Of a stretch of 64,000 nucleotides of DNA, positions 3,924 to 61,909 are shown in pieces; positions within the stretch are counted from its first letter, which is position 1, and each line of letters starts with the position of its first letter. A program made the translations under genes and the position numbers. The DNA comes from a virus, in the IMG/VR virus record IMGVR_UViG_3300027708_000019; one strand, written 5' to 3'. A model generated the notes under the pieces. It was not told the origin of the DNA, made no database searches, and saw only the letters and a list, made by a program, of their open reading frames with translations.

Positions 3924-3976
3924 CTCCTTAATTAGTTAAAGAGTAAGGGTGATGAAACCCCTACTCCAATCCCATA

Positions 3977-4368: not shown

Positions 4369-4373
4369 ACGAA

Positions 4374-4940: not shown

Positions 4941-4972
4941 GTAATATCCTTTAAAAATTCAAAAAACAAAAT

Positions 4973-5272: not shown

Positions 5273-5274
5273 AA

Positions 5275-5744: not shown

Positions 5745-5770
5745 TTTACTCTCCTAGTTTCCATAATATA

Positions 5771-5799
5771 ATTATACCTGAAAACGGAATTAATGTCAA
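5771..5799 (-). promoter_or_regulatory. sigma70-type promoter
   Basis: TTGACA-N17-TATAAT; TATAAATA late-type motif adjacent at 5804-5811. Confidence 0.85.
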
Positions 5800-5806
5800 G
5801 CACTAT

Positions 5807-7011: not shown

Positions 7012-7012
7012 A

Positions 7013-15162: not shown

Positions 15163-15640
15163 TCTTCGCTACCTTTTTCGTTGTCGCTTTTTTTGCTGGT
15201 TCTGCTACCACCACACCTTCTGGCAAAACATCAGGGAAGTTTGCCTTAACAAATTCTGCTGTAATTTTTGGGTAAAGACTATCGATAACTTGATCTTTAA
15301 CTGCGATTAGAATTTTCGCTTCTGATGGATGAATCGATTCAAGCAGTTGAACAAATAGTTGCTCGCGACGAAGACGTTTCTTAACATCACTAAACTTAGT
15401 GAAAATGTAGAAACGACGTGCTTCATTCATCAGATGAACAGGTACCATACCCAATGGTTGTGCGGATGGTTTAAATGGTGGCGCACCCTCTGGTAAATCG
15501 AAATGATACTCAACATCAAATGCACATTTCAATATAGTTTTAAAAGGAAAATTGTCTTTGTAATCAACAGCTTTTTTTGGATCCTTGTTAATTGCCTCAA
15601 AAATTTCTGGCAAGTAAGTTGGTTTGATATTTGTGCTCAT
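15143..15640 (-). CDS. conserved T4-like hypothetical protein
   Basis: LPEGAPPF, RREQLFVQLLESIHPSEA; follows rnh. Confidence 0.7.
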   Translation of the reverse strand: MSTNIKPTYLPEIFEAINKDPKKAVDYKDNFPFKTILKCAFDVEYHFDLPEGAPPFKPSAQPLGMVPVHLMNEARRFYIFTKFSDVKKRLRREQLFVQLLESIHPSEAKILIAVKDQVIDSLYPKITAEFVKANFPDVLPEGVVVAEPAKKATTKKVAKSAEKVD

Positions 15641-16533
15641 TAGAACTCCTCAATTTCTTCTAGTAGTAAACGGCAACGATGGTCCATAAGATATTTCATG
15701 GCTGTCATTTTGTCACCCTTTGGTGGATTATTTAGATAACATCCAATAATTGCATTTTGGATATTCTCTGGGATAAAATTAAAATCAACAAGCGTAGCAT
15801 TGCGATGCCAGTTACGACGCTCTTCATCATTTTTACAAGCATTGAATCCATTCTCAATAAACTCTTGAAGACGTTTTGCGCTCACAGGTTTTTGTCGTTC
15901 GCCTGTCATAAACACATCATCTTTACTGAGAATATTTGGAATACCATCATCACCTGCCTTAACAATGTGAGTAATAGTCTTTTCATGTAATTCTTTGTGT
16001 GTAGCTTTAATAAACTTTTTAGTATTCGGCGACCACTGTGTCACATTATCATATTTCTGAAGTTGTATAAAGTCATGGTCAGATGAAAGAATTAGCATCT
16101 TCTGTGGTTCAGTAACCAAACCTTCTTCAACAAGTTGGTTTTCTTGAGACCATTTACATAATACTGCAACAATATCATCTGCTTCTGCTTCATCAATATG
16201 CATAACACGATATGGGAAATACTCAGCAACATCCTGACGCATTGCATTCAATGTATCAAAGATAAGTGTCCAAGGTAAATCGCTTTTGTCACGTGCTTTC
16301 TTTCTACCAGCTTTATAATACTGGAAGAAATCTCTGCGCCAGTACTTACGTCCGTCACAACAAAGAACAATCTCACCATATTCTTTACCGTATTTCTTTT
16401 TAAAAGATTTGATTGAAGACAGTGTTACGTGTCGAATCAAATTGATAACCTTGTCCTGATCTCCACTCTTCAAGTCTTGTTGAAAAGTTAAAATAGAAGC
16501 AAGGGCAACTTGCGAGTAGTCAATTAAAATCAT
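15640..16533 (-). CDS. rnh: T4-type RNase H (5'-3' flap exonuclease)
   Basis: MILIDYSQ, YWRR..YKAGR, EADD, SSDHDFIQL, DGIPN. Confidence 0.9.
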   Translation of the reverse strand: MILIDYSQVALASILTFQQDLKSGDQDKVINLIRHVTLSSIKSFKKKYGKEYGEIVLCCDGRKYWRRDFFQYYKAGRKKARDKSDLPWTLIFDTLNAMRQDVAEYFPYRVMHIDEAEADDIVAVLCKWSQENQLVEEGLVTEPQKMLILSSDHDFIQLQKYDNVTQWSPNTKKFIKATHKELHEKTITHIVKAGDDGIPNILSKDDVFMTGERQKPVSAKRLQEFIENGFNACKNDEERRNWHRNATLVDFNFIPENIQNAIIGCYLNNPPKGDKMTAMKYLMDHRCRLLLEEIEEF

Positions 16534-18573: not shown

Positions 18574-18901
18574 TAACTTTCTCCTTAAATAATAATTCGG
18601 AACCTTCTGCTACTAGTGCTTTCTTACCAGGAAATCTTTTACTGAAGATAGAATTTATCTCAATTAAATCTTTGCCTTGACAAACAAATTCACTTGTGTG
18701 TTTGTCATACAAAAAGAACATTTCATTCTGTTTCTCTACAGTAACAACCATAATATGTTCTTTATAGAGTCTCTGCGCTTCAGCAAGGGACTCAGCAATT
18801 TCTTCACGTATTAGTTTCCTTGCCTGATGTTTTGCGTATAAATGAATAAACCAAAAAACATTAGCAATCAAAAATAATAGAGTGAGAATTGTTTCCATCA
18901 A
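18566..18901 (-). CDS. membrane-anchored hypothetical protein
   Basis: N-terminal TM; coupled ORF. Confidence 0.6.
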   Translation of the reverse strand: MMETILTLLFLIANVFWFIHLYAKHQARKLIREEIAESLAEAQRLYKEHIMVVTVEKQNEMFFLYDKHTSEFVCQGKDLIEINSIFSKRFPGKKALVAEGSELLFKEKVNE

Positions 18902-19566
18902 AACAGATCTCCTGTTGTGTCCTCTTCTTCATCAGGATAGTGTTTAACTTCCCATTTGAGAACTGCTAAATCTTGTTGCACCTCAGTGTCAATCCAACCT
19001 TCATTTCCACTGCAGTACCAATCAAGATAATCACCAGTACACAGAATATCAGCAACAAGACCGCCAGTTGATCTCCAGCTGTAGCTGATTACTTGACCAT
19101 CTTTGTGTAGTTGATTGTTGCACAATGTAGAATAGAAACGCTTGCAATAATCTTTGCTAGTGCGCATCTTAAGTTTGATTGTTGTGCTATCTTGAATATC
19201 TCTAAACAAATTGATACGATTGTTATCTACATGGTCAGTGTCATCCTCAACAAAAGATTGTTGTTTTTCTTTCGCCTCAGCCATTTCTTGATAGAATTTT
19301 TCCATCCACTTTTCGCGATTACGAATTCCCAACTTAGATTTGATGACATCAAAGAAACTTAGAAATTGTTCAAACTGCTCTTCTTCAAAAAACATTTCAG
19401 TTTTATTGAATTTCAGTTTACCTTCTTTGTCATGGCTTCCCAAAATAACATGTGTCAAACCATGACCAATCTCAAATACATTTACGTAAGTGATTGTATC
19501 GCCATGATCGATTTCAAGGTGTTCGTGTAGGGTGTTATCAAGTTCAGATTGGAATTGATTTAGCAC
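18898..19566 (-). CDS. hypothetical protein
   Basis: GTG start with AAGGAG RBS; SWRSTGG..GDYLDWYCSG. Confidence 0.7.
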   Translation of the reverse strand: MLNQFQSELDNTLHEHLEIDHGDTITYVNVFEIGHGLTHVILGSHDKEGKLKFNKTEMFFEEEQFEQFLSFFDVIKSKLGIRNREKWMEKFYQEMAEAKEKQQSFVEDDTDHVDNNRINLFRDIQDSTTIKLKMRTSKDYCKRFYSTLCNNQLHKDGQVISYSWRSTGGLVADILCTGDYLDWYCSGNEGWIDTEVQQDLAVLKWEVKHYPDEEEDTTGDLF

Positions 19567-24027: not shown

Positions 24028-25125
24028 TTACCTCATAAAACTGTTATTGGGAACATAGAATTCATTTGGATCTAAATCATAAATGTATTCATATTCACTA
24101 CTTAGTGCTACTGGTGTATCACGTTGTAGAAACAGTTTGTATAGGCTACCAGCTTTCATTTTAAAATCTCTATACTCTTGGTCTTTAGTATAGTCATAGA
24201 TAACTTCTTTGGCATGGAATTTATAAGATTCCCAGTTATGTTTAATCTTCAACTGTTTGTTTGACATACTCCAAATCTGAAAGTAATCTTCAGTAAAAAA
24301 ATGATGGAAATATGTGTTAACAAAATCTTTATCAATGTTCTTACGAATTGTTTTATCAACACGCAATATCATTCTGAAGAAAACAGATTGCCACTTAAAG
24401 TTGAAGTTGTACCACCAGAAAAAATCAAATACAGTTTTGATTTCACAAGGTGCTTGTTTTCCATGCTCGTGTAATATTTCATACCAAACATTTGCGAATG
24501 GTTCTGTTAAACCACGCTGCATAAAATAATCAACTACAATTTCTCTAGTATATGGCGAATGAATGATCTCAAAACTAAATCGATTCTTGAAGTCTCCGAT
24601 AACATCAGTACCAAACAATTGATCGTTGTGTTCACCACCAATAATCAAATACTTCTTATCAAAGTAAAGTGTCATTCTGTCACTTGGCTTGACTGTTAAT
24701 TTTCCACGAATGTGATTTTGATAGAAGTTTGGATTCTCACGAATGCTATCCATACTCATGACAACAACAAGTCTATCGCGATCTGACTCAGGGATTACTT
24801 TTAAAAATGATACTAGAACAAGAGTTGAATCAATACCACCAGAGTAAAACACATAAAGTGGTAAGTCCATTTGTTTTGACTTCTCATATAATTCAGTTGC
24901 TCTTTTCTCGCAACATTGTTCATATGTTAAATCATATTTACTTAAATCTGTTGGCATAACATTTGGTTCATACAGTTTAAATCTGTATGGCATAATAACA
25001 CGCTCTGAACGATCAACTAGACTTACGTTCAAGTTGATCATTTCATAAATGCTACCCCACTCAGGACATCCAGCAGCAGGATGTTCTCTAAGAATATCGC
25101 AGTTGGCAAGATATAATTCTTTCAT
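24028..25125 (-). CDS. asparagine-synthetase-like PP-loop ATPase (paralog 2)
   Basis: YSGGIDST and GGEHNDQLFG motifs; clear similarity to 9332-10453. Confidence 0.62.
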   Translation of the reverse strand: MKELYLANCDILREHPAAGCPEWGSIYEMINLNVSLVDRSERVIMPYRFKLYEPNVMPTDLSKYDLTYEQCCEKRATELYEKSKQMDLPLYVFYSGGIDSTLVLVSFLKVIPESDRDRLVVVMSMDSIRENPNFYQNHIRGKLTVKPSDRMTLYFDKKYLIIGGEHNDQLFGTDVIGDFKNRFSFEIIHSPYTREIVVDYFMQRGLTEPFANVWYEILHEHGKQAPCEIKTVFDFFWWYNFNFKWQSVFFRMILRVDKTIRKNIDKDFVNTYFHHFFTEDYFQIWSMSNKQLKIKHNWESYKFHAKEVIYDYTKDQEYRDFKMKAGSLYKLFLQRDTPVALSSEYEYIYDLDPNEFYVPNNSFMR

Positions 25126-25757
25126 CAGCAATGCGCATTTCTAACCAAAGCATGACAGGCATCTTTAAATCCTTGTCTTAATTCATCTCTGGTTGATAGT
25201 TTATTAAATTTGTCAACATAAACACCAAACCATGCGAAATTTCTCATCTTGATCAACCCACTGGTTTCAAGCATGAGTGTAAGTTCTTCATATGCTGTTT
25301 TGTTGGAAATATTGTGAGCAGATGCATATTCAACTATACCATTAGCATATGTATCTGTCTTTGGATCACTGGCTTCCATATCTTTAATCAGGAATGCCAT
25401 AATAGATTCGTCAAAATATAAGACGGATCTTTCATTTTGTCTACGGAATTGTTCTTCTAAAGCATGAATGTAATGGGCACGAACAGAAGCAATTTTCTTG
25501 CGATCCATATACTCTTTGGTTATCAACAACTCTGGCATATAACCAATCCAAGTATCTTGTTTTGGTGTGAGTCTCAGCTTGTCTTTTTCAAAGTCAAACT
25601 GTTTAAGTTCTTGAGCAACCGAATCGATCTCTATTGGTATAACAACAACATCAGTGTTAATCATTCCTTTAGAAACTGCGATAGCAGTAGTAAATGATTT
25701 TGGTAATGCTAAGATCGCTTTAGTTGATACATCAATTACGGTATATAAAGCACTCAT
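25125..25757 (-). CDS. hypothetical protein, partner of PP-loop enzyme 2
   Basis: TGATG overlap with downstream enzyme gene. Confidence 0.65.
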   Translation of the reverse strand: MSALYTVIDVSTKAILALPKSFTTAIAVSKGMINTDVVVIPIEIDSVAQELKQFDFEKDKLRLTPKQDTWIGYMPELLITKEYMDRKKIASVRAHYIHALEEQFRRQNERSVLYFDESIMAFLIKDMEASDPKTDTYANGIVEYASAHNISNKTAYEELTLMLETSGLIKMRNFAWFGVYVDKFNKLSTRDELRQGFKDACHALVRNAHC

Positions 25758-29702: not shown

Positions 29703-30362
29703 TTATTCTTGTTGTATAAATTCTGACGATAATGGAAATACTTCAGCAATTACTTTTGCGCATGCTTTAGCAATTTCCATATGTTCTTTTTGTGTGCCAT
29801 TGCCAGATCGTAATTGTATATAGTGAATCCAACTTCTGACAGTTCCATTCATGTAAAGTCTTGATACTGTCAATCCTTCTGGCAACACTGCTCTTGCTTG
29901 TTCTTTGGCAATGCCATTTGCAATAGCCCACTTATACACATTTTTACAAATAGAAAGCACCCGATCCTGCTGTTCTTCCCACCTTTTTTGTAAATACTCA
30001 TCATCTGTCTCAACGCTATTTTGACGATTCTTAGTATCTTGAAGACGTGCTTCTCTAATCTCAAAATCTAAATCCTGAGTCGGATCTGCATAACGCTGTG
30101 AAAATTCTTGAAACGAGAATGAACGATGGCGTAGCATTTGTCTTGCGATGTCACGTGTTGTTGTGATTTCAAGACAAATATTTACCATCTCTAATGGCGA
30201 CCAATGCTGATTCTTAATCAGATATCTGATCAACTTCTCACTTGTTTCTTTGTTGTTTTGGTTGCTAGGATTACTAACACGAGCACAGAACGCAACTAAT
30301 TCTGTCATGTTTTCAGCAAAATATTCTGCTGGTTGCGAAAATGATATGAGTTCAATCTTCAT
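29703..30362 (-). CDS. thyX: flavin-dependent thymidylate synthase
   Basis: HWSPLE, RHRSFSFQEFSQRY. Confidence 0.95.
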   Translation of the reverse strand: MKIELISFSQPAEYFAENMTELVAFCARVSNPSNQNNKETSEKLIRYLIKNQHWSPLEMVNICLEITTTRDIARQMLRHRSFSFQEFSQRYADPTQDLDFEIREARLQDTKNRQNSVETDDEYLQKRWEEQQDRVLSICKNVYKWAIANGIAKEQARAVLPEGLTVSRLYMNGTVRSWIHYIQLRSGNGTQKEHMEIAKACAKVIAEVFPLSSEFIQQE

Positions 30363-44135: not shown

Positions 44136-46394
44136 TTACCCAAAAATTGTATCTAAACTATTTGTAGTAGCATTATATACTTGATATACTGCGCTTACGT
44201 TACTTGCGTTTACGAAACCAACTTTACTTCCTGAACCTACATAAATGTTACCAACAACACCCAATCCACCACCAAGTTTTAATGAACCAGTAGTGCTAGA
44301 TGTAGAAGCTGTTGTATCAGAAAGAGTTGGAGCACCTGTAAAAGTGCCAGACAATGCACCGCTATTAATAGTTGGAGATGTTAATGTTAATCCAGCAAAT
44401 GTAGTTACTGTTGCGCCTAAAGAAACTGCTGTTGAACCAATAGTAACAGAACTGTTGGTCAACATGGTATTTGTTATAGAACTGGCACCCAACAAACCAG
44501 TAATATCTGCTTGAGCAACTGCCACAGTTCCAGTTACTAATCCCTTAGTGTTGGTAGTAATTTTCTTAAATGTGCCAGTACCAGAGTCAGTGATAGTTGC
44601 TAGTGTTAATGCGATAGTTCCAGTGTTTAACGCAGTTGCTGGAGCAGTAGCATCACCAGTAACAGCAAGTGTTTGCGTATATACAAGTTGTTTATCATTC
44701 GTTACATTACCTAAACCAACATCTGTGGATGTTAAAGTAACTACACCAGTTTTACCAGCGACAGAATCAACTGCTCCGCTGGTAATATAAACATAAACAG
44801 AACCTGACCATCTATATGCTTTACTTGTATCTATGGCAATATAGATCTTTCCTGTTTCGCCAGTCGCAGGGAATGCTGCAAGGTTTGCATATTCAAGAAC
44901 ATCATCAACATATGATGGCAAGTACGTAGAAGAAATTTTAGAAGTAGCATCAAGTGGCGCAACACCATTGGCAGCACCAACTAATGATGACGCAACACGA
45001 GCAGTAGAGTCAACTGCGTTAATCGTAATATTAGCAGATCCATCAAATGAAACACCATTAATGGTACGAGCAGTTTGTAATATAGTTGCTGATCCAGCAT
45101 TGCCAGTAACAGTTGTTTGAGCGGTAGAACTAATTACACCGCTGGCAATAGTGATTGTTGTACCATCAACTTTAACACCGCCAAGAACTGTTGTTGATGA
45201 GGTTGGTAGTGAGTAAGCATTAGGTATGTTTGTTAGATCATTATAACTACCAGAGAACAGAGTTGGTTTACCAGTTAGACTAGCGTATGCTCCATCAAAC
45301 AATGTTGGCTTGTTGGTTAAGTCATTATAACTTCCACTGAACAATGCTGGTTTGTTTAGTATCTGTGCTAGTCCAGAACTGGCATTCCAATCACTATTAA
45401 CTTGTGCGGCAGGTATTGTTGGCTTGTTAGTTAAATCAGTATAACTTCCACTGAATGGTGCGGCTACACTGATAACACCTGCGTTGATAGTTATATTGCT
45501 ACCAATCTTTACTCCACCTAATATTGTGTCAGTTGCTGTTGGTAAAGTATAAGCACTGGGTATTGTTGGCTTGTCAGTTAAGTCAGTATAACTACCTGAG
45601 AACAATGTAGGTTTGCCAGTTAGACTAGCGTATGCTCCATCAAACAATGTTGGTTTACCAGTTAGACTAGCGTATGCTCCATCAAACAATGTTGGTTTAC
45701 CAGTTAGACTAGCGTATGCTCCATCAAACAATGTTGGTTTGTTTTTAATAAAACTTTTTAAAGTGTTGTCAGTAACATTCCAATCAGATTGTATCTGAGC
45801 AACACCACCTGAACCACCACTTACTGCAGAGAATTCAAACTTTTTACTTGTACCATTGTACCCAAGATAATATCCATCTTGAATAGTAGAACGATCGATG
45901 TCGTCAAGATATCTTAGGTTTACTTCACCAGATCCTGGACCTGTGGCAGCAATGCGTCCGATTGCTTGCTCTAAAAATTTAAGTTTCTTTTGAATGCCAG
46001 TAATGTTGGGATCTACTGGTTGTGGTGCTGGCTGTTGAAAAGAATCTTTATTGACTACTTCTTTTTCAACAATTACTTCTTTTTCAACAATTACTTCTTT
46101 TTCAACAATTACTTTTTTAACAGGTTGTTTCTTTTCAACAAACAACTCCATCATTTCACCAATATCATTATTGGCTTTGAGACTTTCTTTAACAGCTTTT
46201 AATGCTTTTCCTGCAGGTGTTTTTTCTTGTTCTTCTTTGAGTTTACGTTTCTCTTCAGCAGCAGCTTTGAATAGCGTAGAAAGATTTACTGGCTGTTCTG
46301 GCTCTGACTTTTGTTGTAGCAAAAGTTCTTCCTGCTCTTTGAGTTTACGTTTCTCTTCAGCAGCAGCTTTAAATAGATCACCAAGATCAGTCAT
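44136..46394 (-). CDS. long fibre protein with internal repeats
   Basis: KPTLF(D/S)G(A/S)YxxLT repeats, LGGVK motifs, charged N-terminus. Confidence 0.7.
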   Translation of the reverse strand: MTDLGDLFKAAAEEKRKLKEQEELLLQQKSEPEQPVNLSTLFKAAAEEKRKLKEEQEKTPAGKALKAVKESLKANNDIGEMMELFVEKKQPVKKVIVEKEVIVEKEVIVEKEVVNKDSFQQPAPQPVDPNITGIQKKLKFLEQAIGRIAATGPGSGEVNLRYLDDIDRSTIQDGYYLGYNGTSKKFEFSAVSGGSGGVAQIQSDWNVTDNTLKSFIKNKPTLFDGAYASLTGKPTLFDGAYASLTGKPTLFDGAYASLTGKPTLFSGSYTDLTDKPTIPSAYTLPTATDTILGGVKIGSNITINAGVISVAAPFSGSYTDLTNKPTIPAAQVNSDWNASSGLAQILNKPALFSGSYNDLTNKPTLFDGAYASLTGKPTLFSGSYNDLTNIPNAYSLPTSSTTVLGGVKVDGTTITIASGVISSTAQTTVTGNAGSATILQTARTINGVSFDGSANITINAVDSTARVASSLVGAANGVAPLDATSKISSTYLPSYVDDVLEYANLAAFPATGETGKIYIAIDTSKAYRWSGSVYVYITSGAVDSVAGKTGVVTLTSTDVGLGNVTNDKQLVYTQTLAVTGDATAPATALNTGTIALTLATITDSGTGTFKKITTNTKGLVTGTVAVAQADITGLLGASSITNTMLTNSSVTIGSTAVSLGATVTTFAGLTLTSPTINSGALSGTFTGAPTLSDTTASTSSTTGSLKLGGGLGVVGNIYVGSGSKVGFVNASNVSAVYQVYNATTNSLDTIFG
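45598..45739. repeat. 42-bp coding tandem repeat (about 3.4 copies; further copy near 45262-45307)
   Basis: CCAGTTAGACTAGCGTATGCTCCATCAAACAATGTTGGTTTA unit = KPTLFDGAYASLTG. Confidence 0.9.
46066..46113. repeat. 18-bp coding tandem repeat
   Basis: TACTTCTTTTTCAACAAT unit = IVEKEV. Confidence 0.85.
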
Positions 46395-50257: not shown

Positions 50258-50286
50258 ATTATACTATAAAACCGAATAAATGTCAA
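50258..50286 (-). promoter_or_regulatory. sigma70-type promoter abutting late-type TAAATA
   Basis: TTGACA-N17-TATAAT then TAAATA at 50253-50258. Confidence 0.8.
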
Positions 50287-52341: not shown

Positions 52342-52370
52342 ATTATACTATAAAATACAGGAAATGTCAA
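52342..52370 (-). promoter_or_regulatory. sigma70-type promoter
   Basis: TTGACA-N17-TATAAT. Confidence 0.85.
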
Positions 52371-52371: not shown

Positions 52372-53721
52372 CTACCCGAAGAACTCGTCCAGTCCTTGGG
52401 TTGTTGGTGCTTCGAAATGTTCATCGAACATATTTCTTGCATTTCTGGGGATATTTGGATCATAATTCGACTTCGTCTTGAGTTCGTTTAGGAAACCTGT
52501 AGTTCTACCCATAGCCAAGTCGATGTAGTGCTGAGCAACTACTTTTCGATCAAATTGTTTAATCAATTCGTAGTTATTTAGCTGAATCTGTCTGTAGTCT
52601 TGTTCGCGCATGAAACAATAGTTAGCGATCGCTTCGCCATATTCTTTTGGTGTAAAATCCTTTTTGAGCATACAGTAGTTAACACCTGCCTTCAAAACAG
52701 TTCCCATACCCTCATCGTTGTTGGAAACCCCATAATTTACAGCGATGGGCACAGTCCCGATGCGCATAGCATCAATGACAACCCTATTGAAATGCTCACC
52801 AAAAGTGTTAGACCAGCTAGGATCAACAAGAAATTTAGAAGTTGCCAAAATTTCGTCACGTTTTGCTCCAGAAATAAAACCAAGATATTGAAAATTGCCT
52901 GAATTTTCAGCATTCTCCCAAATACGTTTACCTTCTCTATCTGGTGTAACATCTGGATCATACTGAGAAGTCGCAAAATATTCTTCTTTACATTTATCTT
53001 TGGACATCATATATGCTGCTTCAATACCATATCCACCAACCAGTGTTTTTACATCTTTCATGTAAGGAACAGCACGAACCAAATCATCGACACGTTTCCA
53101 ACGCTTAAATGTTTGGATAGATAAAATCTTATTTTCACGCTGATTGAATGGTGGTGTTTCAGGAATACCAGCAATGTCTTGTGGGTTTAAAATCAAGGCA
53201 CGTGGTACGTCCATAAAATCAGCTGAGTCATATGCTGCTGGATGTACACAAGCCAAACCAGCAAAGTGTTTCTCAAACAAAACAATCCAAGGATATAACT
53301 TTTTAAGATTAGCATCATGAATAATTGGAACCTGCTTTGATGTAATTTGTTCAATCATCGGCAGCCATTCTAGATACTGCTCAGTGTCTTTATTTTTAAA
53401 ACCAAAAATAGACTGCCAAATAACCAAGTCGTGTTTGTTAGCATCTTCAACAAACTGATCAATAGACTCTTTAACTTTATACGAATAGTATGGAGCAATC
53501 CAGCCATCGCCTTGATGAACAGGATAACCTGTACCGATACCAATTTCGTAGCCTTCTTTTAACTCAGAAGGAATTTCAACTGGCTTCACTTGTTTATTTG
53601 GTTTAAGATAAGCAAATGTTACCTCATGACCAATTTCTTTCAATCCTGCTACGAGATGTTCACAGTGATTGATAATACCTCCAAAGTTGTTGAAGGTGTG
53701 CATTACCATCATAATCTTCAT
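52372..53721 (-). CDS. GT-B fold glycosyltransferase (DNA glycosyltransferase candidate)
   Basis: FGGII, KRWKR, EHFNRVVIDAM (Ex7D). Confidence 0.75.
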   Translation of the reverse strand: MKIMMVMHTFNNFGGIINHCEHLVAGLKEIGHEVTFAYLKPNKQVKPVEIPSELKEGYEIGIGTGYPVHQGDGWIAPYYSYKVKESIDQFVEDANKHDLVIWQSIFGFKNKDTEQYLEWLPMIEQITSKQVPIIHDANLKKLYPWIVLFEKHFAGLACVHPAAYDSADFMDVPRALILNPQDIAGIPETPPFNQRENKILSIQTFKRWKRVDDLVRAVPYMKDVKTLVGGYGIEAAYMMSKDKCKEEYFATSQYDPDVTPDREGKRIWENAENSGNFQYLGFISGAKRDEILATSKFLVDPSWSNTFGEHFNRVVIDAMRIGTVPIAVNYGVSNNDEGMGTVLKAGVNYCMLKKDFTPKEYGEAIANYCFMREQDYRQIQLNNYELIKQFDRKVVAQHYIDLAMGRTTGFLNELKTKSNYDPNIPRNARNMFDEHFEAPTTQGLDEFFG

Positions 53722-53882
53722 AGTGTTTTCCTTAGTTCATAACTTTTATGTTGTTGTTCAAGCCACTCTTGTGCTTCTATTTCGCTGTCAAAATATGGAC
53801 TCACCAAATTACGATAAGTTCTATTGATCCAAAAATAAGTATAGGTGTGCATACCAACGTCCCTATACTTAATTAGTTCCAT
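53718..53882 (-). CDS. small hypothetical protein
   Basis: VSPYFDSE motif; overlaps GT start. Confidence 0.55.
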   Translation of the reverse strand: MELIKYRDVGMHTYTYFWINRTYRNLVSPYFDSEIEAQEWLEQQHKSYELRKTL

Positions 53883-53886
53883 GCCA

Positions 53887-54735
53887 TCAAGTCCAGAGTC
53901 CATGGCGCACCTTGATAAGTCGTATCATCATTTCTTCGTCTTCAGTCTCATACGCTTGTTCAATTTTATGACACTCATCAAGCATTTTAGAAACTCTTTC
54001 TTTTTCTTCTGGTGTTTTTTCTTCACGACCCATAAAGCCATATGGTTCGCCATCTTCATCGCGATCGTTTCTACGCTCATCGCAGTAAGCAGACCATCCT
54101 GATGCTTCGTGAGGATCAACACGTTTTGGTCTTTCAATTGTCCACCAATTATATAGATCTAGAATTTCTTGTGCTTTAATTGCTTGGTGAGTTGGTTTAC
54201 CATAATCAGGACTATCTTTCTCTACCCACTGTTCATCATGAACCAACTTACGTTGCCATTCTAAATTAGCAAGACCACATTCAGGTTTGCGCCATGTGCG
54301 CCAGCGGAACCATCCCCAAGCCCACCATGGTGCAACAAATTTCTTACGAGCATCTTCATCCCATGCTACATGCCACCATGCTAATTCAATTTCAACAAAA
54401 TCGACAAGTTCATTAAACAAACAAGGAAGAAACCTATTACCCACGTCACACCAACTACCAGGACTGATATCACGAGCATGGGCAGTAAGAGAATGAGTGC
54501 GAGTAACAAATCTATTGTTAATATAATATTTGAGAGCATAAAGTTTGTCCACTGGATAAAAGATTGTTTTTTGAATAATATCAAGTCCTTCTTCTGCCAA
54601 CCAGTAGCGGAAAGGATGTGACTTTTTTGCTTGCTTGTTCCATTTGTGCCAACCTTCGCTGGTTTCAGCAGTTGGTTTCATTGTGCCACGAAGCCAGTCG
54701 GCAAACTTAGAACATGTCCAATAATTGTTTCTCAT
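53887..54735 (-). CDS. Trp-rich conserved phage hypothetical protein
   Basis: GGAG RBS, own promoter; RLIKVR..LWT end. Confidence 0.7.
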   Translation of the reverse strand: MRNNYWTCSKFADWLRGTMKPTAETSEGWHKWNKQAKKSHPFRYWLAEEGLDIIQKTIFYPVDKLYALKYYINNRFVTRTHSLTAHARDISPGSWCDVGNRFLPCLFNELVDFVEIELAWWHVAWDEDARKKFVAPWWAWGWFRWRTWRKPECGLANLEWQRKLVHDEQWVEKDSPDYGKPTHQAIKAQEILDLYNWWTIERPKRVDPHEASGWSAYCDERRNDRDEDGEPYGFMGREEKTPEEKERVSKMLDECHKIEQAYETEDEEMMIRLIKVRHGLWT

Positions 54736-54752
54736 AATTACTCCAAAAGTAT

Positions 54753-54781
54753 ATTATACTATGTATTTGAGTTTTTGTCAA
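54753..54781 (-). promoter_or_regulatory. sigma70-type promoter
   Basis: TTGACA-N17-TATAAT. Confidence 0.85.
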
Positions 54782-56100
54782 GCAAAGAATTCATCTAAGT
54801 CAGCGTTATTTGCTGCTGGGTGATACTTAGCAACCATCGCATCGCCATTTGGTTGTTTACGAAGATAGTCATACCATTCTTCATCATCCCACATTCCTGG
54901 ACTTACGCCATTCCAAAGTTTCTTCCACAACTTATGTTCTTTATTTAGACGACGTGATTCAACATACTCATAACGAGCATTCTCATATTCCCAACTACCA
55001 AGTTGCATCATATTTTCACGAAGATAAACAACAAGAGAAATACGCTCTGAACCTTCTTCACAAACAATCGGTGTGTTACCATGGATGACTTCATGATTGT
55101 TTACCAATAACAAATCTCCTGGACGAACATTAACAGCAGTGCGAATCTCTGGGAAAATTAAATAACCACCTGTATATTTACCATCATTAGACAATGTCAA
55201 CAGATTAGACATACCTTCAGTAAAATCACCAGCATCACGATGAGCAGCTGTACGGAATGTTTTATTAACTGTTACTGTAGTAAATGGTGTTGCCTCAATA
55301 ACAAATTTCTGATCAATCTTATCAGTTGCTGTTTTCTGATTAGCATAACGCTGTGGTAGTAGTGTTTTAAAACCACGTGCCAATGATTGTAGAAATGGAT
55401 ATGCCATTCTAAACTTCTCAGGATTATCTCGAGTATAAGTTGTCGCACGACCAAAAGGAATTCTAGGATAACGATCAAACCAACCTGCGATACCAGAATC
55501 AACTGGATTACCATAAGATGTTTCACTAATCATAGTCATAACTTCTTCTGTTGCTTTCGCACGTTCTTCTGGATTGAGTTTGATGATTGAATCAACCCAC
55601 TCATCGAAATTAAACTTGTTACGGAAACGTGAGATAACCCAAACATTATTTTTACCAGAACCCAATGCTTTCAAACGTGATTCTTGCGTTGGATACTTTT
55701 CTCTAATTGTGGTAATAACATCATCATCAGACAATCGAGCAAAACGAGCAGACAGCAACTCACTAATCATTTCTTCTTGATAGTTAGTAACCCACTCACG
55801 TCCTTCGCCTGTGACAGAAGTTCCTGCTTTGATACCAGAAGCAAGTCCACGATTTTCAGTACGAACTGCTGCTTCACGCAATCCAACATATGCTTGTTCC
55901 TGTTCTTCTTTGGTGAAGAAGTTCTTACGGAATTTAAAAGCGATCTTTGCTTCGCTGTGTGGATTGTCGTCTTCATGATCAGGTGGCAAATAGAAATCAG
56001 TATCTTCCTCAACCAAAAGATCATAATGAGATTCATCTACGAACATACCAAGTAAATGTTCTGAATCGTGAATTTTATCTGCTACAATAATTTTTGTCAT
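54778..56100 (-). CDS. TET/JBP-family 2OG-Fe(II) dioxygenase
   Basis: PFTTVTVN, TAAHRDAGD (HxD), GGYLIFPE, HGNT, RISLVVYLR. Confidence 0.75.
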   Translation of the reverse strand: MTKIIVADKIHDSEHLLGMFVDESHYDLLVEEDTDFYLPPDHEDDNPHSEAKIAFKFRKNFFTKEEQEQAYVGLREAAVRTENRGLASGIKAGTSVTGEGREWVTNYQEEMISELLSARFARLSDDDVITTIREKYPTQESRLKALGSGKNNVWVISRFRNKFNFDEWVDSIIKLNPEERAKATEEVMTMISETSYGNPVDSGIAGWFDRYPRIPFGRATTYTRDNPEKFRMAYPFLQSLARGFKTLLPQRYANQKTATDKIDQKFVIEATPFTTVTVNKTFRTAAHRDAGDFTEGMSNLLTLSNDGKYTGGYLIFPEIRTAVNVRPGDLLLVNNHEVIHGNTPIVCEEGSERISLVVYLRENMMQLGSWEYENARYEYVESRRLNKEHKLWKKLWNGVSPGMWDDEEWYDYLRKQPNGDAMVAKYHPAANNADLDEFFA

Positions 56101-57491
56101 ACCTTAAATCCCTCAAAATTGTTTTCTTTCATTCTTTTGCCAAACTTAGACTGATCAAACAAAGGTGTGTCATCATCAACAGTTCCCTGTCCTGCGATAT
56201 TCATTTGAGCACTCATCTCAACATCATACAATCTCATTTGCTTTCTATCAATACCAATAACAAAACGCTTGAAATAATTTGGATCTGAATAACGATTCTT
56301 CAACTGTTTTACCATAACCTGATTCATCTGATCCAACTCTTCAGTCGCAATTAACGCAACCATCAAATCAGCAGTTGCTGGCAAACCAAACGATTCTGAA
56401 GTATCCTCAAGTCCTGGATCTGTGTTAGCATATCCAGAACGAGTCGTTTGTGTTGCGGAAACAATTGGCACTTTATATTCACCAGCCAAACCACGCAACT
56501 CTTCAGCAATCGACTTAATATATGTATAAGAGTTTACATTGGCTCCCATACGAATTCTTTGAGAAGAACAAATGTTCAAGTAATCAATGTAAATAATATC
56601 TGGTTTGAAATTACGTTTCATCTTAAGTTCTTCAATCAATGCTCGGAAATGACCAGAATGAGCAGAAGAAGTTGGATATTCTTTAACAATGAATTTACCT
56701 TGTGTTTTGTTACGGACTTTCTCAAGTCTAGCATCAAATACACGTTTCTCAACCATAGGAATTGATTCAATTGACAACTCAAGTAAGTTCGCATCAATAC
56801 GCTCAGCAATCTTTTCTTCAGCCATCTCCATAGTTATGTATAATACATTTTTACCAGTCAACAAATTAGCAGCAGCAAAATGACACATCGCCAAAGATTT
56901 ACCAACACCTGTACCTGCCAAAATAATGTTGAGGGTTTTCTTACTCAAACCACCATTCGTGATTTTGTTAAGGATCTCCAAGTCGAAAGGAATTTTCTCT
57001 TCAACTCTGTGATAAAAATCATACCTCGCATCTGAGTCATCAAGATAGTCATGTCCAACATGTGAGTCGAATGTGACACCCAACGCTTTAGACAATAAAT
57101 CTGGGATCGCATCTTGTGTTCTAATCTTATCTTTACCATCAATAATTTTAATTGAATCGATAATCGCATTATAAACAGCCTTGTCTTTACAAAACTTTTC
57201 AGTAGAAGTTGTGATCCAATCAATGTGAGTTTTCTCAGAATTGGTTGAATCGAGAATCTCATTCGCAAGTCTAACTTGATCTTCAGTTACATCGGTGCGA
57301 TTTGAGATTTCAATTTTCAATACATCTTTTGTTGGTGCTTCATTATATGTGACAAAGAATTTTGTTATCTCTTCAAAAACTACTCTGTCAGTTCTATCGG
57401 TAAAATATTCTGGCTGAAGGAAAGGCATAACCTTTCTTGAATATTCTTCATGACACAATAAATTACCGAAGATTTGGTCTTCAATTCGCAT
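56097..57491 (-). CDS. 41: replicative DNA helicase (T4 gp41-like)
   Basis: AGTGVGKS, YITMEM, DYLNI, SESFG, KQLKNRY. Confidence 0.95.
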   Translation of the reverse strand: MRIEDQIFGNLLCHEEYSRKVMPFLQPEYFTDRTDRVVFEEITKFFVTYNEAPTKDVLKIEISNRTDVTEDQVRLANEILDSTNSEKTHIDWITTSTEKFCKDKAVYNAIIDSIKIIDGKDKIRTQDAIPDLLSKALGVTFDSHVGHDYLDDSDARYDFYHRVEEKIPFDLEILNKITNGGLSKKTLNIILAGTGVGKSLAMCHFAAANLLTGKNVLYITMEMAEEKIAERIDANLLELSIESIPMVEKRVFDARLEKVRNKTQGKFIVKEYPTSSAHSGHFRALIEELKMKRNFKPDIIYIDYLNICSSQRIRMGANVNSYTYIKSIAEELRGLAGEYKVPIVSATQTTRSGYANTDPGLEDTSESFGLPATADLMVALIATEELDQMNQVMVKQLKNRYSDPNYFKRFVIGIDRKQMRLYDVEMSAQMNIAGQGTVDDDTPLFDQSKFGKRMKENNFEGFKV

Positions 57492-58536
57492 CTACTTCTT
57501 CCTCTATCTCTTGTGGGGTATCTTCTTCACTACCATAATTATACTTGCTTTTGCAGTATTTGTCAAGTTGTTTCAAGATATCTTCGGAGAAAAATTCAGA
57601 AGGATTATTTGCGATATTTTTGCCGAACACTTTACGTCCATCGTGGACTTCAATTCGACCACCTTGGGATTTCCAAATTCCTGCCTCAATCGCAAGATCA
57701 GCAAGTCCGTGGTATCGGTCAAGACCTTTGGTAAATGAAAGTTTAGTTTCGACCATGGATTTCTCGCGAGTGAAGCGAGATTTTTCCAGTTTACATTTTA
57801 TAATATTACCAACCACTTCGGTGCCGTCTTTATCTTGCGATTTTGACAGAAACACAATAGTAGATGCTGCGTACTTAAGACCATCGCCACCACCCATAGT
57901 TTTCGTTGGCATATACGCACCAACAACAGCATAGGTATGATTAGTAACAACCATAGCAACATCCAACTTTGATAGTTTCAATGATAGAACACGAAATGCT
58001 CCACGAATTAACTGAGCACGTGTCATATCACGAGTATCTTTACCTTCAAGTGTATCTTCCATCTCTTTAGAAGTTGAGAGCATACCCAATGAATCAAGAA
58101 AGAACATCAATGGTGGACGATCTTTCTTTGGTGTTTTTTCATAAGCATCTAAAACTTTAGTAGCTTGAGTGCGGAATTCTTGAATCGTAGAAACAGGAAC
58201 AATCATGAAACGCTTGGTATCAATACCACGATCAACCAACATATCTTTGTTCAGTGCTCCTTCTGTTTCAAAGTATATAACTCCAGCCTGTTCATTAGTT
58301 CGTAGAAAATTGTTCGCAATGCCAATAGCATAAAATGTTTTTCCTGTGGAAGACTCACCAGCCAGAGCTGTAACTTTGTTGCCAGGAAGACCACCATAGA
58401 TGCTACCGCTGACAAGAGCATTAAGGGAATAAGAACCAGTGTCGATAAAACTACTAGTATCACCAACCACACCATCATCAGCAAGTCCCGCATATTCATT
58501 ATCAAGTTCCTTTACGATATTCTTTAAAAAACTCAT
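57481..58536 (-). CDS. uvsX: RecA-like recombinase
   Basis: GESSTGKT, LDSLG, DMTRA, NHTY, MGGG. Confidence 0.95.
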   Translation of the reverse strand: MSFLKNIVKELDNEYAGLADDGVVGDTSSFIDTGSYSLNALVSGSIYGGLPGNKVTALAGESSTGKTFYAIGIANNFLRTNEQAGVIYFETEGALNKDMLVDRGIDTKRFMIVPVSTIQEFRTQATKVLDAYEKTPKKDRPPLMFFLDSLGMLSTSKEMEDTLEGKDTRDMTRAQLIRGAFRVLSLKLSKLDVAMVVTNHTYAVVGAYMPTKTMGGGDGLKYAASTIVFLSKSQDKDGTEVVGNIIKCKLEKSRFTREKSMVETKLSFTKGLDRYHGLADLAIEAGIWKSQGGRIEVHDGRKVFGKNIANNPSEFFSEDILKQLDKYCKSKYNYGSEEDTPQEIEEEVDAN

Positions 58537-58781
58537 TCTTGTGTCTCCTTATTTGGTACCAATTTAACTTCAGCAGTAATCATCTGTAAATATTCAGCGA
58601 TGCATACTAAACAGTAGTGTTCATCCTCAATCCCAAACTCTGGCATGTTTACACGAATCGTGTATTCACCAATCTCACCATGTTTATCACAAACAACTTT
58701 TGGTGGTGTCTTGAGATCAATTTCTTCTGTTTTTACATCTTTAAATTTGACATCTTGGATGTCTGGAAATTCTTGTGTCAT
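58533..58781 (-). CDS. small hypothetical protein (CxxH..CxxC)
   Basis: AAGGAG RBS; own promoter. Confidence 0.6.
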   Translation of the reverse strand: MTQEFPDIQDVKFKDVKTEEIDLKTPPKVVCDKHGEIGEYTIRVNMPEFGIEDEHYCLVCIAEYLQMITAEVKLVPNKETQE

Positions 58782-58801
58782 ATTAAACTCCTTATTTCAG
58801 T

Positions 58802-58830
58802 ATTATACTATATTCCGTATTAAAAATCAA
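58802..58830 (-). promoter_or_regulatory. sigma70-type promoter
   Basis: TTGATT-N17-TATAAT. Confidence 0.7.
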
Positions 58831-58834
58831 ATAA

Positions 58835-61336
58835 TTAAAAGAATTCTGCCAAGTCATTCTTTTCGTCAACAGACCAGCCAATCGAATTCATAATTGCGGA
58901 AAGTGGGTCAAGGAAAACTTTTTCAAATTGTTTTTCATAATCTACGTATTTATGTAGGTCTAACTGTTTGGGTAATGTTGTAGTAAACGCAATAACATCT
59001 TCACGAATAGTATTTGGTTCACGAAGATAGATAAATTTAATTCTATCGCCTTCACGAATCGGTTGGTATAATTCTGTTAACCCAAGTTCCTTAATGTGAT
59101 GATTGAACATCAACGCACCTCGAACATGAATCGGTGTTGATTTGCGATAAATCGAACCAGAATCAGAATACTCTTTCAAATTGTTTACGCTTCGTGGGAA
59201 TGCGATATCTTCAATCGGTAACCCATAAAACTCTTTTCTAAAATCAACAATAAATTTACGTAATTGAATCTCATCACCAGCAATCAAAATCTTCATTGAA
59301 TCTTTTAATTTACCACGAACTACCATAGGGGTTGACGACTTAACCATCTCAAGACCCATGATTTTCATTTTGGGTTCAGCATATTGAACACCCTCAGAAT
59401 TGTGTACGTTAAGAACATAACGCTTCTTCGCAGTCCACACACCCTTGTCGGCAATAACTTCACGCTTCATAATCATTTTCTGAGAGAATGCGTTTTGTCT
59501 TTGAGCCAAGTCAGAATAACACTTATCTATGTATAATTGAATTTTATCTTCACAAATCTTATCAATATATTCAACAACTTTTGTTTTATCTTTCTGTTGT
59601 TCTTTCGTGAATACTTTATCAACAAGTGGACCAAATCGTAGATATACAGAGTCAGTGTCAACAGCAATTACATAATCTTCTTTTTCAGTCTTGAGTAATT
59701 TGTTGAAGTATTCATTAAATTTCTTTTCCATCCAACGAATAGACAACTGACCACTCAACGTGATACCTTCAGACATGCGTTTGTCATAATATCGGAAATA
59801 TTGATTAGCCAACGCACCATAAGCTGAGTTCAACGCAATCTTAAGAGCCATCTGAAGATTATTCAATCGAGATATCTCATTTGTTAGAGATTCGTCTTTT
59901 GTGTTTTCATATTCTTGTTGAATCTTCAACATTTGTTTCTTTGCTTTACTGCGATTGATGTACATAGTTTCCATCAACTCAGGCAAGAAACCTTTGATGT
60001 CTTTACGGTAACACCAACCATTCGCAGTACAAGATAAATCTAAATCATGAAAACCACCAGTTTCTTCATGCTCAAGGAAATACCCAACACCACCAACGTG
60101 TTTATAACCTGCGTCCATTGTTTCAGGACTAATGTTATATTGCATAATCAAATGAGGATATAGACTGTTCAAGTCAAAAGAAACAACCCAGTTATGCATA
60201 CCAACAAGTGGTTCTTTAACATAAGCACCTTCAATAACAGAATCTTTATCATTGTGTTGTTTGTTTGGAATCACAATCTTTTTAGAACGCAAATGATTAT
60301 AGATGATTGTATCCCACATTCTAACTTGAGAGAACACATCCTCATAGTTTACCTTTGCGTTATACGCCATAACCATAGCCAATTCAATCAACTTCATCTT
60401 GTCTTCAAGTTTATCAACAAGCACAGTATCATGAATGTTATAATCAACAAACTTCTTCCATCCGTAGGTATAGAAATCTTTGAAAGTATCGTATTCAGAA
60501 TAATCTAATTTGTTTTCACCAAGTTCAACAAACGCAATGTGATCCAACTTGTATGATTCTTGCATTGAGTAAGTAAACTTTTTATACAAGTCAATATAAT
60601 CAAGAGCAGAAATACCTGCGATGTCATATGAGATTTCTTCAGATCCCTTAACATGAATCCTACGTTCGTTTATAATACCCCATGGGGATAGTTGCTTAGC
60701 ATGAGATTCGCCAAGCACATTCATAATCCTGCGTGTTAGATACGGAATATCAAAGAAGTTGATGTTCCAGCCTGTAACGATGTCGGGATAGTTTTCTTTC
60801 CAGAAGTCCAGGAAATTCATAAGAAGTGCTCGCTCACTTTCGCAGTGATGAAATCTTACTTCTCTATTTCCTGTGTATGGATTTTTACCAAAGGTATGAA
60901 TCTCTTTGGTTTTGTTGTCCATAAGTGTGATGAGAAGGATTTCCTCATTAGCAGTTTCTATGTTAGGAAATCCTTCCTCGGTTGTGGTTTCAATATCAAT
61001 AGAGAAACATTTGATTAGATCTTTATTGAATGTGATGTCAGTAGGATATGTATCTGAGATATACTGGTAAGCAAAGTTTGTGTTACCATATACCATGAAT
61101 CCTTGAACGTCTTTATAACGATCGATAAATTCTTTTGAGTCGCGAATAGATCCTGGACGAATTGAGTAAACAACCTCACCATCAAGTGTACGGAAAATTT
61201 CACCAGCATTTTTACTCTTAGATGATGCGTAGAGTGTTGGCTTGAAATCTATTTTGTCTGTATATTGTTTTCCGTTTTGATATCCACGTACACAAAGTTT
61301 GTTTCCCAGAGGGAACACATTTGTATAAAATTCCAT
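58835..61336 (-). CDS. 43: family B DNA polymerase (T4 gp43-like)
   Basis: DIET, GWN..FD, DLNSLYP, KIALNSAYG, DTDS, KKRY. Confidence 0.97.
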   Translation of the reverse strand: MEFYTNVFPLGNKLCVRGYQNGKQYTDKIDFKPTLYASSKSKNAGEIFRTLDGEVVYSIRPGSIRDSKEFIDRYKDVQGFMVYGNTNFAYQYISDTYPTDITFNKDLIKCFSIDIETTTEEGFPNIETANEEILLITLMDNKTKEIHTFGKNPYTGNREVRFHHCESERALLMNFLDFWKENYPDIVTGWNINFFDIPYLTRRIMNVLGESHAKQLSPWGIINERRIHVKGSEEISYDIAGISALDYIDLYKKFTYSMQESYKLDHIAFVELGENKLDYSEYDTFKDFYTYGWKKFVDYNIHDTVLVDKLEDKMKLIELAMVMAYNAKVNYEDVFSQVRMWDTIIYNHLRSKKIVIPNKQHNDKDSVIEGAYVKEPLVGMHNWVVSFDLNSLYPHLIMQYNISPETMDAGYKHVGGVGYFLEHEETGGFHDLDLSCTANGWCYRKDIKGFLPELMETMYINRSKAKKQMLKIQQEYENTKDESLTNEISRLNNLQMALKIALNSAYGALANQYFRYYDKRMSEGITLSGQLSIRWMEKKFNEYFNKLLKTEKEDYVIAVDTDSVYLRFGPLVDKVFTKEQQKDKTKVVEYIDKICEDKIQLYIDKCYSDLAQRQNAFSQKMIMKREVIADKGVWTAKKRYVLNVHNSEGVQYAEPKMKIMGLEMVKSSTPMVVRGKLKDSMKILIAGDEIQLRKFIVDFRKEFYGLPIEDIAFPRSVNNLKEYSDSGSIYRKSTPIHVRGALMFNHHIKELGLTELYQPIREGDRIKFIYLREPNTIREDVIAFTTTLPKQLDLHKYVDYEKQFEKVFLDPLSAIMNSIGWSVDEKNDLAEFF

Positions 61337-61339: not shown

Positions 61340-61909
61340 TTATTTTCCATGTACTAGTTGCATGATGTCATATGCGCAGTCATGCACAGGATGATGTTTA
61401 ATTACATTTGATCCCTTGTCGAAAGGAATTGTTAAATCACAGTAACCATTTTTTGCTGTTGTTGTTAAACAGTCTAATGCTGTTCTTACATCTCGCCATT
61501 GATTATATGGTGCGAGTAACTCTTGACCTGTGACTTTACACAAACTGTCAATCGCCATTTGATCTAGTGAACCACGTGCCCAAAATGTATTTTTACCTGG
61601 ATTTCCAATGTAATCACGAAGTCGATTGATGCCTTCGATCGCTTCTAGGTCGTCTTCCTCACTCGGAATGAAACTTACCTTGCGAACGTAGTCATGTTGA
61701 TTTGACCACCACTCAATGGTAGATTTATCAATCGTACGTTTATACTTAGCTACTTGTTCCTGCACATTAAACTTTACAAACAGTGCTTCGGAGATATAGT
61801 CATCGTAGGTTTGTGTTTTATCGTTTGGGTCAAATGCGATAATCGCAGCAGACAATACAACAGTCGTAGACTCTACACCGAGAGTCTCAATATCAAACAT
61901 ATACATCAT
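61340..61909 (-). CDS. dexA: 3'-5' exonuclease (DexA-like)
   Basis: FDIETLG, WARG..D, WRDVRT, HHPVHDC. Confidence 0.75.
   Translation of the reverse strand: MMYMFDIETLGVESTTVVLSAAIIAFDPNDKTQTYDDYISEALFVKFNVQEQVAKYKRTIDKSTIEWWSNQHDYVRKVSFIPSEEDDLEAIEGINRLRDYIGNPGKNTFWARGSLDQMAIDSLCKVTGQELLAPYNQWRDVRTALDCLTTTAKNGYCDLTIPFDKGSNVIKHHPVHDCAYDIMQLVHGK

Follow-up and report, generated by a model that had tools for sequence, protein, structure and literature searches.

Polymerase-like C-terminal tails on a TET/JBP dioxygenase and a glycosyltransferase suggest clamp-tethered DNA hypermodification in a T4-like phage

The 64 kb stretch of DNA analysed here (IMG/VR record IMGVR_UViG_3300027708_000019, hereafter the window) comes from an uncultured T4-like phage, and the features of Table 1 lie on its minus strand. 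A single minus-strand gene block at 50.3–61.9 kb carries the replication genes gp43, uvsX and gp41, followed by genes for a TET/JBP-type (5mYOX) Fe(II)/2-oxoglutarate (2OG) dioxygenase, here called TET, and for a GT-B glycosyltransferase (GT) (Table 1). The polymerase gp43, TET and GT have closely similar C-terminal endings, ...KNDLAEFF, ...ADLDEFFA and ...QGLDEFFG, respectively. A sequence-only reading of the window had pointed to the tails DLAEFF, DLDEFFA and GLDEFFG, and these were confirmed from the open reading frames (ORFs) and their translations. The overlap between the TET gene and the gp41 stop codon, also claimed there, was read from the DNA as an ATGA at 56097–56100, with a GAGG Shine-Dalgarno sequence upstream.

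No close cultured relative was found by megablast against phage records. The polymerase is 54–56% identical to gp43 of T4-like cyanophages, gp41 is 57% identical to that of S-SM2, and the gene order hsp20 ... gp43-uvsX-gp41 is that of T4-like cyanophages. For the clamp, gp55 and genome-wide absences, very close or complete relatives of the window phage were used: G002, an IMG/VR contig of 102 kb that is 98–99% identical to the window over aligned stretches; G003, a complete relative used beside it for whole-genome questions; and the four relative records G002–G005 as a set, three of which are at least 90% complete. The TET protein as query gave 23 IMG/VR loci, G002 among them, and the order gp41-TET-p282-(p61)-GT-p224-p438 recurs across these loci.

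The tail motif was defined as [LIVM]x[DE]FF plus zero or one residue at the C-terminus and was sought in window ORFs of at least 40 codons, among which only the polymerase, TET and GT end in this way. The frequency of the motif at internal positions predicts 0.017 C-terminal occurrences by chance, equivalent to a Poisson P(≥3) of ~7e-7, and in G003 the same three proteins carry the motif (P ~5e-6), although the motif was defined after it had been seen and these P values are indicative only. The sequence-only reading had made its case depend on conservation of the tails, and alignment of C-termini bears it out: the tail persists in 114 of the 120 best TET homologues (down to 65% identity) and in 118 of the 120 best GT homologues (down to 54% identity). 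The five core tail positions hold 2.7–4.3 bits in the two families, compared with 1.2–2 bits for the preceding five to six residues. Across related loci, the C-terminus stays L-[DEA]-[DE]-F-F(x) in the polymerase, TET and GT, with variation in the residues just before it.

It is hardly credible that the shared ending is due to chance or to a constraint at the DNA level, with the tail codons occupying the UP-element position of a following promoter. The arrangement of the sites does lend itself to such an explanation, in that a promoter directly follows all three stop codons (12/12 consensus matches after TET and GT, 10/12 after the polymerase) and the TET stop codon falls within a −35 hexamer at 54781 (GCT TGA CA). 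However, the tails are written in different synonymous codons in the three genes (TTG, TTA and CTG for Leu; GAT and GAC for Asp; GAA and GAG for Glu; TTC and TTT for Phe), which places the constraint on the peptide rather than on a DNA repeat. Substitutions within the tail exchange similar amino acids (D/E, F/L), and the Poisson estimate also argues against coincidence. In phages DLP_6 and C48C1, the TET stop codon and the next gene overlap, so that no promoter could fit between them, yet the peptide is kept. These codon differences, together with the promoter-free loci, led us to reject both a DNA repeat and an UP-element origin of the tail.

Table 1. Features of the window discussed in the text
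Feature	Position	Strand	Family or note
Rv2179c-like exonuclease	61340-61909	-	
gp43 family-B DNA polymerase, 833 aa, tail DLAEFF (codons 58838-58855)	58835-61336	-	PF03104 + PF00136
82-aa ORF	between gp43 and UvsX	-	
UvsX	57481-58536	-	
Perfect sigma70-type promoter upstream of gp41 and TET	57538-57566	-	
gp41 replicative helicase	56097-57491	-	PF03796 DnaB_C
TET/JBP (5mYOX) Fe(II)/2OG dioxygenase, 440 aa, tail DLDEFFA (codons 54781-54801)	54778-56100	-	PF12851
Perfect sigma70-type promoter (TTGACA-17-TATAAT) for p282-p61-GT	54753-54781	-	
p282, Trp-rich orphan between TET and GT, 282 aa	53887-54735	-	no Pfam/PHROG family
p61, small ORF overlapping both neighbours	53718-53903	-	no family found
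GT-B (GT4-like, retaining-type) glycosyltransferase, 449 aa, tail GLDEFFG (codons 52375-52395)	52372-53721	-	PF00534
Perfect sigma70-type promoter right after GT stop codon, upstream of p224	52342-52370	-	
p224, orphan with HExxH, 224 aa	51647-52321	-	no family found
p438, conserved, 438 aa	50313-51629	-	phrog_1462
Perfect sigma70-type promoter upstream of next gene	50258-50286	-	
ThyX flavin-dependent thymidylate synthase	29703-30362	-	PF02511, 6e-42

In T4, acidic-hydrophobic C-termini are established ligands of the sliding clamp gp45; they are freely exchangeable and are carried on a variable, probably unstructured linker (PMC2988020). The LDFLF sequence of T4 ligase binds as an amphipathic helix in the gp45 pocket, with a dissociation constant of ~10 uM (PMC6212786). 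In the T4 genome record, gp43 ends ...KASLDFLFG and gp55 ends ...SPSLDFLYEAND (motif SLDFLYEAND), and the C-termini of alpha-gt, beta-gt, dam and gp42 read from the same record show nothing like the gp43 tail. In the 99%-identical G002, gp55 terminates in SLETFLEEDSNE, and the G003 protein in NLESFLGDENGS; in both, the motif is followed by a few acidic residues, the same arrangement as in T4. A gp33 homologue was not located and its tail is absent from the comparison. The clamp gene is found in G002 (66365–67024, equal to L032:8366-9022) ~3.5 kb past the right end of the window, followed by gp44, gp62 and regA, and its product matches the T4 and RB69 gp45 structures over its full length (E=1e-26). 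The components of a gp45 epitope are thus present: L-x-x-F-[FL] at the extreme C-terminus, a variable linker before it, the motif on the cognate gp43 and on gp55 (G002), and a phage-encoded gp45 (G002). AlphaFold2 (AF2) models likewise predict the tail as a short terminal helix behind a low-confidence linker in both enzymes. Confidence in the TET model (mean pLDDT 73) falls from ~90 to 56 over the last ten residues, with a helix at 435–439, and in the GT model (pLDDT 90) residues 442–444 are below 50 and a short helix spans 444–448. Since it matches the T4 gp43 and gp55 epitopes in position and composition, we infer that the tail is the phage's own version of the gp45-binding epitope and would dock in the hydrophobic pocket of the clamp.

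The tail could instead be a real peptide motif with another partner, such as the clamp loader, gp32, gp59 or a host factor, or a degron timing the turnover of early proteins; we consider this quite unlikely. The motif is short, gp45 is a partner proposed by analogy of sequence, and acidic-hydrophobic C-termini can serve other interactions. Similar endings are also carried by proteins outside replication, namely SLDTIFG on a tail-fibre-like 752-aa protein of the window (44136–46394, minus strand) and GIDSFF on the G003 baseplate-hub protein (G003:24723-25433 = L039:4723-5433), although on these structural proteins they are probably there by chance. Against another partner, the motif on gp43 and gp55 agrees with T4 epitopes whose known partner is gp45, and TET homologues lack the tail exactly where no gp45 clamp is encoded, as described below.

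Some further window proteins have endings or segments of related character. A T4-type RNase H (15640–16533, minus strand) ends LLLEEIEEF and an unassigned 222-aa protein (18898–19566, minus strand) ends EEEDTTGDLF; these acidic-hydrophobic endings might be weak clamp ligands. Internal LRDFF and VFDFF sequences in two proteins (9332–10453 and 24028–25131), neither of which has a Pfam family, were considered as ligase-like clamp loops.

Three more distant T4-like phages, DLP_6, Cr30 and C48C1, encode full-length homologues of the window TET. The polymerase and TET end TLDSFFA and TLGDFFV in DLP_6, DLSSLFD and GATLF in Cr30, and TLEDFFG and SLEEFFV in C48C1. The glycosyltransferase of DLP_6, a 287-aa TAGT protein (PF20691/phrog_842), ends DLSSFFN, and a weak TAGT match in Cr30 ends DLSKLF; none was identified in C48C1. 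The TAGT family is unrelated to the window GT-B enzyme, and the polymerase's tail is thus found on two distinct glycosyltransferase families. Phage Melnitz has a distant TET (26% identical), encoded next to an HhaI-like C5-cytosine methyltransferase (C5-MT), that ends NLNDFLGE, and its polymerase ends TLEDFFG; the C5-MT itself has no tail. From these sequences, the tail appears to have been gained independently by unrelated enzymes (GT-B, TAGT and two TET lineages). By contrast, it is missing from the TET homologues of HTVC112P, P12024L and S-CBWM1, and a profile of 131 gp45 sequences, which detects the clamp in C48C1 and Melnitz, finds no gp45-type clamp in these three genomes. The lineages in this association of tail and clamp are few and not all independent, and it is supportive rather than a statistical proof.

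Related endings were seen at other loci. In L019 (TET ending SLADFLG, polymerase NLEEFFG), a 335-aa protein without a Pfam family lies right after TET (L019:11321-12328) and ends IDLSFL; it may be another tailed modification enzyme. The GNAT and amino-acid:DNA transferase (AADT) proteins of L024 end NLEGF and GLENF, which may be weaker versions of the tail. A GT group ending 'LESLFG' was not retrieved by a search aimed at that group. In Nonlabens phage P12024L (L049, 4595–5990), a DNA methyltransferase near TET ends QSQQTLF and the product of the gene between them ends NQLEIF. QLxLF is the bacterial beta-clamp-binding motif, and these endings might be a host-clamp counterpart of the tail.

Both enzymes match their family profiles above threshold. 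TET matches PF12851 at 1.2e-25 (90 bits against a cut-off of 34.9) over residues 222–362, and H287, D289, H336, H340 and R353 are invariant in 71 homologues, providing the HxD...H iron triad, with H336 or H340 as distal ligand, and the 2OG-binding Arg. The AF2 model has a double-stranded beta-helix fold and matches CcTet, NgTET1, TET2 and CMD1 with a Foldseek probability of 1.0. GT matches PF00534 at 2.2e-9 (37.5 bits against a cut-off of 26.4), and its two-Rossmann-domain GT-B fold retrieves PimA (E=4e-14), HepE, BshA and MshA in Foldseek. The TET catalytic domain is 45% identical to that of the HTVC112P homologue, which has an adjacent ParB-like gene. By Pfam, none of the nine neighbouring window proteins belongs to a ParB-like family, which sets the window enzyme apart from the ParB-dependent subclass.

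The sequence-only reading had suggested thymine rather than 5-methylcytosine (5mC) as the substrate, having seen no cytosine methyltransferase in the window, and had called for a genome-wide search for one. The absence holds up, and the suggestion is supported. Five methyltransferase and hydroxymethylase queries gave no tblastn match in the window, and neither a C5-MT (PF00145) nor a ThyA-family enzyme (PF00303, which includes the dCMP and dUMP hydroxymethylases) was found in G002–G005, so that there is no evident source of 5mC. ThyX, encoded in the window, is also present in G002–G004; the phage therefore makes dTMP and its DNA has ordinary thymine. Published work identifies phage 5mYOX enzymes that lack a neighbouring C5-MT as thymine dioxygenases, which often come together with GTs (PMC13229309; PMC8256090), and the window enzyme shares the lack of a C5-MT that marks this class.

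The genes around close TET homologues point the same way. In homologues (56–74% identical) without GT-B, different genes follow TET. The L024 cassette (583–8169; TET 63% identical) comprises a glutamine amidotransferase (GATase), a GNAT, an AADT (PF18724) and a P-loop kinase, each separated from the next by an unknown. In L026:9998-13427, p282 and GT are likewise replaced by a thymine-hypermodification cassette, and the Cr30 TET lies three kb upstream of an AADT gene in the same gene cluster. The GATase/GNAT/AADT/kinase set is known machinery that elaborates 5-hydroxymethyluracil (5hmU). With no C5-MT or ThyA enzyme, ThyX present and 5hmU-type clusters around close TETs, thymine is the likeliest substrate, and conversion of thymine to 5hmU and then to glycosyl-5hmU is the likeliest chemistry predicted for the pair. 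DNA 5hmU, or 5-hydroxymethylcytosine (5hmC), would be the GT acceptor, by analogy with published phage GT-B DNA glycosyltransferases and from the conserved linkage to TET. GT4 enzymes are retaining, which makes an alpha-linked sugar on 5hmU the likeliest product predicted from the fold.

A variant in which the tails bind the clamp but the substrate is 5mC or another base, the methyl group coming from the host or an unrecognised phage methyltransferase and the product being glycosyl-5hmC, is unlikely. It draws on the ability of some characterised phage 5mYOX enzymes to oxidise both T and 5mC (PMC13229309; TET89, PMC8256090) and on the pairing of a tailed TET with a C5-MT in Melnitz. The absence of PF00145 and ThyA-family genes from three relatives that are at least 90% complete, and of tblastn matches in the window, is difficult to reconcile with it, as are the AADT, kinase and GATase genes acting on 5hmU in which close TET homologues are embedded. 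The identity to the ParB-adjacent HTVC112P enzyme, whose gene context is that of the published T-dioxygenase class, also argues for thymine.

Sugar-nucleotide genes occur near TET in cultured phages: a nucleotidyltransferase in DLP_6 (L001, 7274–8965), a UDP-galactopyranose mutase in C48C1 (L002, 11375–12385), and a glucose-1-phosphate thymidylyltransferase with an APH-like kinase in S-CBWM1 (L047, 6058–7921). This suggests different sugars in different lineages. Public records mis-annotate these TETs as 'SNF2 DNA repair protein'. Metagenomes yielded 2679 TET homologues, and the modified base is thus probably common in environmental phage DNA.

The four perfect 12/12 promoters in Table 1 lie on the coding strand in short intergenic gaps. 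Promoter-like sites in total show no excess over a shuffled control, and only the perfect coding-strand intergenic ones stand out. From these promoters, TET and GT can be classed as early genes expressed alongside replication proteins. Pfam and PHROG searches gave no family for p282, p61 or p224, and no function could be assigned to p438 (phrog_1462). In related loci, p282 is present wherever GT-B is present and missing wherever GT-B is missing; its nearest Atlas clusters are viral hypothetical proteins, and it might take part in glycosylation as a third component. The C-terminus of p282 (IRLIKVRHGLWT) is conserved. p61 was found in several related loci at 47–60% identity. p224 follows the modification module in most related loci that reach past it. 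Since homologues are encoded downstream of TET not only in GT-B loci but also in L024, with its GATase, AADT and kinase genes, p224 goes with TET and not with the downstream chemistry. It carries the motif MHEYIHH (homologues L019:12841-13560 and L024:7474-8169), and its sole lead is a weak SprT-like resemblance (Atlas score 0.85). Compared with the window, G002 has ~490 bp extra (71455–71970) beside the exonuclease gene, against window position ~61925; this is the position of a 171-aa ORF that is not among the window ORFs. A rearranged or divergent segment also lies at window ~45.9–48.4 kb.

Taken together, these observations lead us to regard as probable an early, post-replicative module in which clamp-tethered TET (T to 5hmU) and GT (glycosylation) act on new phage DNA. 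The early promoters would yield both enzymes together with the replisome proteins, and the clamp loader would set gp45 only on primer ends and nicks of replicating phage DNA. The trimeric clamp has three pockets, and TET and GT could dock by their tails beside or after the polymerase, scanning the new duplex and converting T to 5hmU and then to glycosyl-5hmU. The site of action might be the fork, or clamps that stay on the DNA after its replication, as they do in T4 late transcription. Such a tether would give selectivity for phage DNA and processivity by sliding. From the shared tails, the chemical masking of phage DNA, most likely of thymine, probably takes place on clamps carried by newly copied DNA.

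Several points weigh against this proposal. The clamp gene lies outside the window, and its presence is deduced from the 99%-identical contig G002. Tails diverge in a few homologues (DLGDEWFA, NLMEMDL, ADLSWLDI). Co-variation of tails within genomes is anecdotal, with only Cr30 suggestive (LF in the polymerase, TET and TAGT-like protein), and within the window FF-end and FFx-end states show no co-variation; such co-variation is not claimed here. Specificity for T or 5mC is not readable from sequence, and some characterised phage 5mYOX enzymes oxidise both; the sugar donor and anomeric linkage are read from the GT4 fold alone. Lastly, the co-purification of T4 alpha-GT with gp45 is a precedent for a tether, but promoter swaps showed that the enzyme's contribution to glucosylation is not determined by its affinity for gp45 (PMC13216743); the tether need not, therefore, be rate-determining.

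This last result has a place in another explanation, by which the tails are mainly regulatory and compete with gp43, gp55 and gp33 for the clamp, so that late transcription would be coupled to DNA modification or held back until modification has taken place. In T4, late transcription is activated by the clamp, whose three sites are interchangeable (PMC2988020), and the alpha-GT–gp45 interaction does not set glucosylation levels. We nonetheless find a mainly regulatory role improbable, as the independent gain of the tail by several unrelated DNA-modifying enzymes fits the recruitment of catalysts better than a dedicated regulator.

The tether proposal can be taken further. More tentatively, as a possibility that we put forward without leaning on it, gp45 could be a general tool-belt for hypermodification in T4-like phages, and possibly an obligatory activator, with at least four unrelated lineages having gained the tail: T-type 5mYOX, 5mC-type 5mYOX beside a C5-MT, GT-B and TAGT glycosyltransferases. 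The AADT and GNAT proteins ending in LExF may be further cases. If this were true, the replicative clamp would play the role that the ParB clamp has for ParB-dependent T-dioxygenases, and this could account for the failure of some phage 5mYOX enzymes without ParB to show activity when produced alone in E. coli.

Post-replicative hypermodification must find and finish phage DNA before host nucleases do, which raises the question of how the enzymes distinguish phage from host DNA and reach full coverage; its rationale has been called a mystery (PMC13229309). A clamp tether would be a simple answer, the loader marking replicating phage DNA and the clamp giving one-dimensional processivity. In practical terms, the cognate clamp and its loader may be required in heterologous assays of tailed enzymes, and a tag at the C-terminus may hide the tail; tailed enzymes are also of interest as tools for 5hmU and 5hmC chemistry and sequencing. 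Phage 5mYOX and GT thymine chemistry is already published, and clamp-binding tails on gp43, gp55, gp33 and ligase are textbook knowledge. No clamp tether on hypermodification or dioxygenase enzymes was found in the full-text literature searched, and in PMC13229309, PMC8256090 and 10.1101/2023.12.21.572611 the clamp appears only as a neighbouring gene, with no clamp-binding tail.

The closest known counterparts of the tail are the T4/RB69 gp43, gp55 and gp33 epitopes and the ligase LDFLF loop (PMC2988020; PMC6212786; PDB 1B8H, 6DRT). All are short acidic-hydrophobic motifs, and like the T4 epitopes the tail is shared by the polymerase and gp55 of one phage, is predicted to be helical, and stands at or near the C-terminus behind a variable linker. 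The T4 motif is S-L-D-F-L-F/Y, compared with L-D/E-x-F-F here, and the ligase loop is internal whereas the tails here are C-terminal. The T4 epitopes are found on replication and transcription proteins; those described here are putative clamp ligands on a base-modifying dioxygenase and glycosyltransferases.

The enzymes themselves resemble the published phage thymine dioxygenases of 5mYOX clades C1/C2 (O'Toole et al., PNAS 2026, PMC13229309; Burke et al. 2021, PMC8256090; Pyle et al., bioRxiv 10.1101/2023.12.21.572611) in having PF12851, no adjacent C5-MT and a GT nearby, and in the predicted post-replicative modification. They differ from the ParB-dependent thymine dioxygenases in having no ParB partner. 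Compared with the published 5mYOX enzymes, the window TET has an extra N-terminal region of ~200 aa and the clamp-type tail, and is embedded in a gp43-uvsX-gp41 replication operon. T4 alpha-GT is, like the window GT as proposed, a DNA glycosyltransferase of a T4-type phage associated with the sliding clamp (Sommer et al. 2004; PMC13216743). Unlike the window GT, it ends ...KEQFDIITK without a gp43-like tail and still bound gp45 when C-terminally His-tagged (PMC13216743), which implies a different binding mode. Its substrate, 5hmC, is incorporated before replication is complete and is not made by a TET.

The predicted route, in which a TET/JBP enzyme turns T in DNA into 5hmU and a glycosyltransferase then makes glycosyl-5hmU, is also that of base J in kinetoplastids (JBP1/2 thymidine hydroxylases and JGT). 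However, the window enzymes have no J-DNA-binding or SNF2 domain and no JGT (Pfam finds only PF12851 and PF00534), the GT is of GT-B/GT4-like retaining type, so that the anomer probably differs from beta-glucosyl base J, and targeting is proposed to be through the phage clamp. The window system is a functional analogue of base J and not a member. In eukaryotes, DNMT1 is coupled to replication for maintenance methylation through PCNA and a PIP-box. The proposed arrangement is alike in that a DNA-modifying enzyme would be brought to new DNA through a clamp-binding peptide, but neither the proteins nor the member of the clamp family is related to those of DNMT1–PCNA coupling, and the modification here probably serves as anti-restriction masking.

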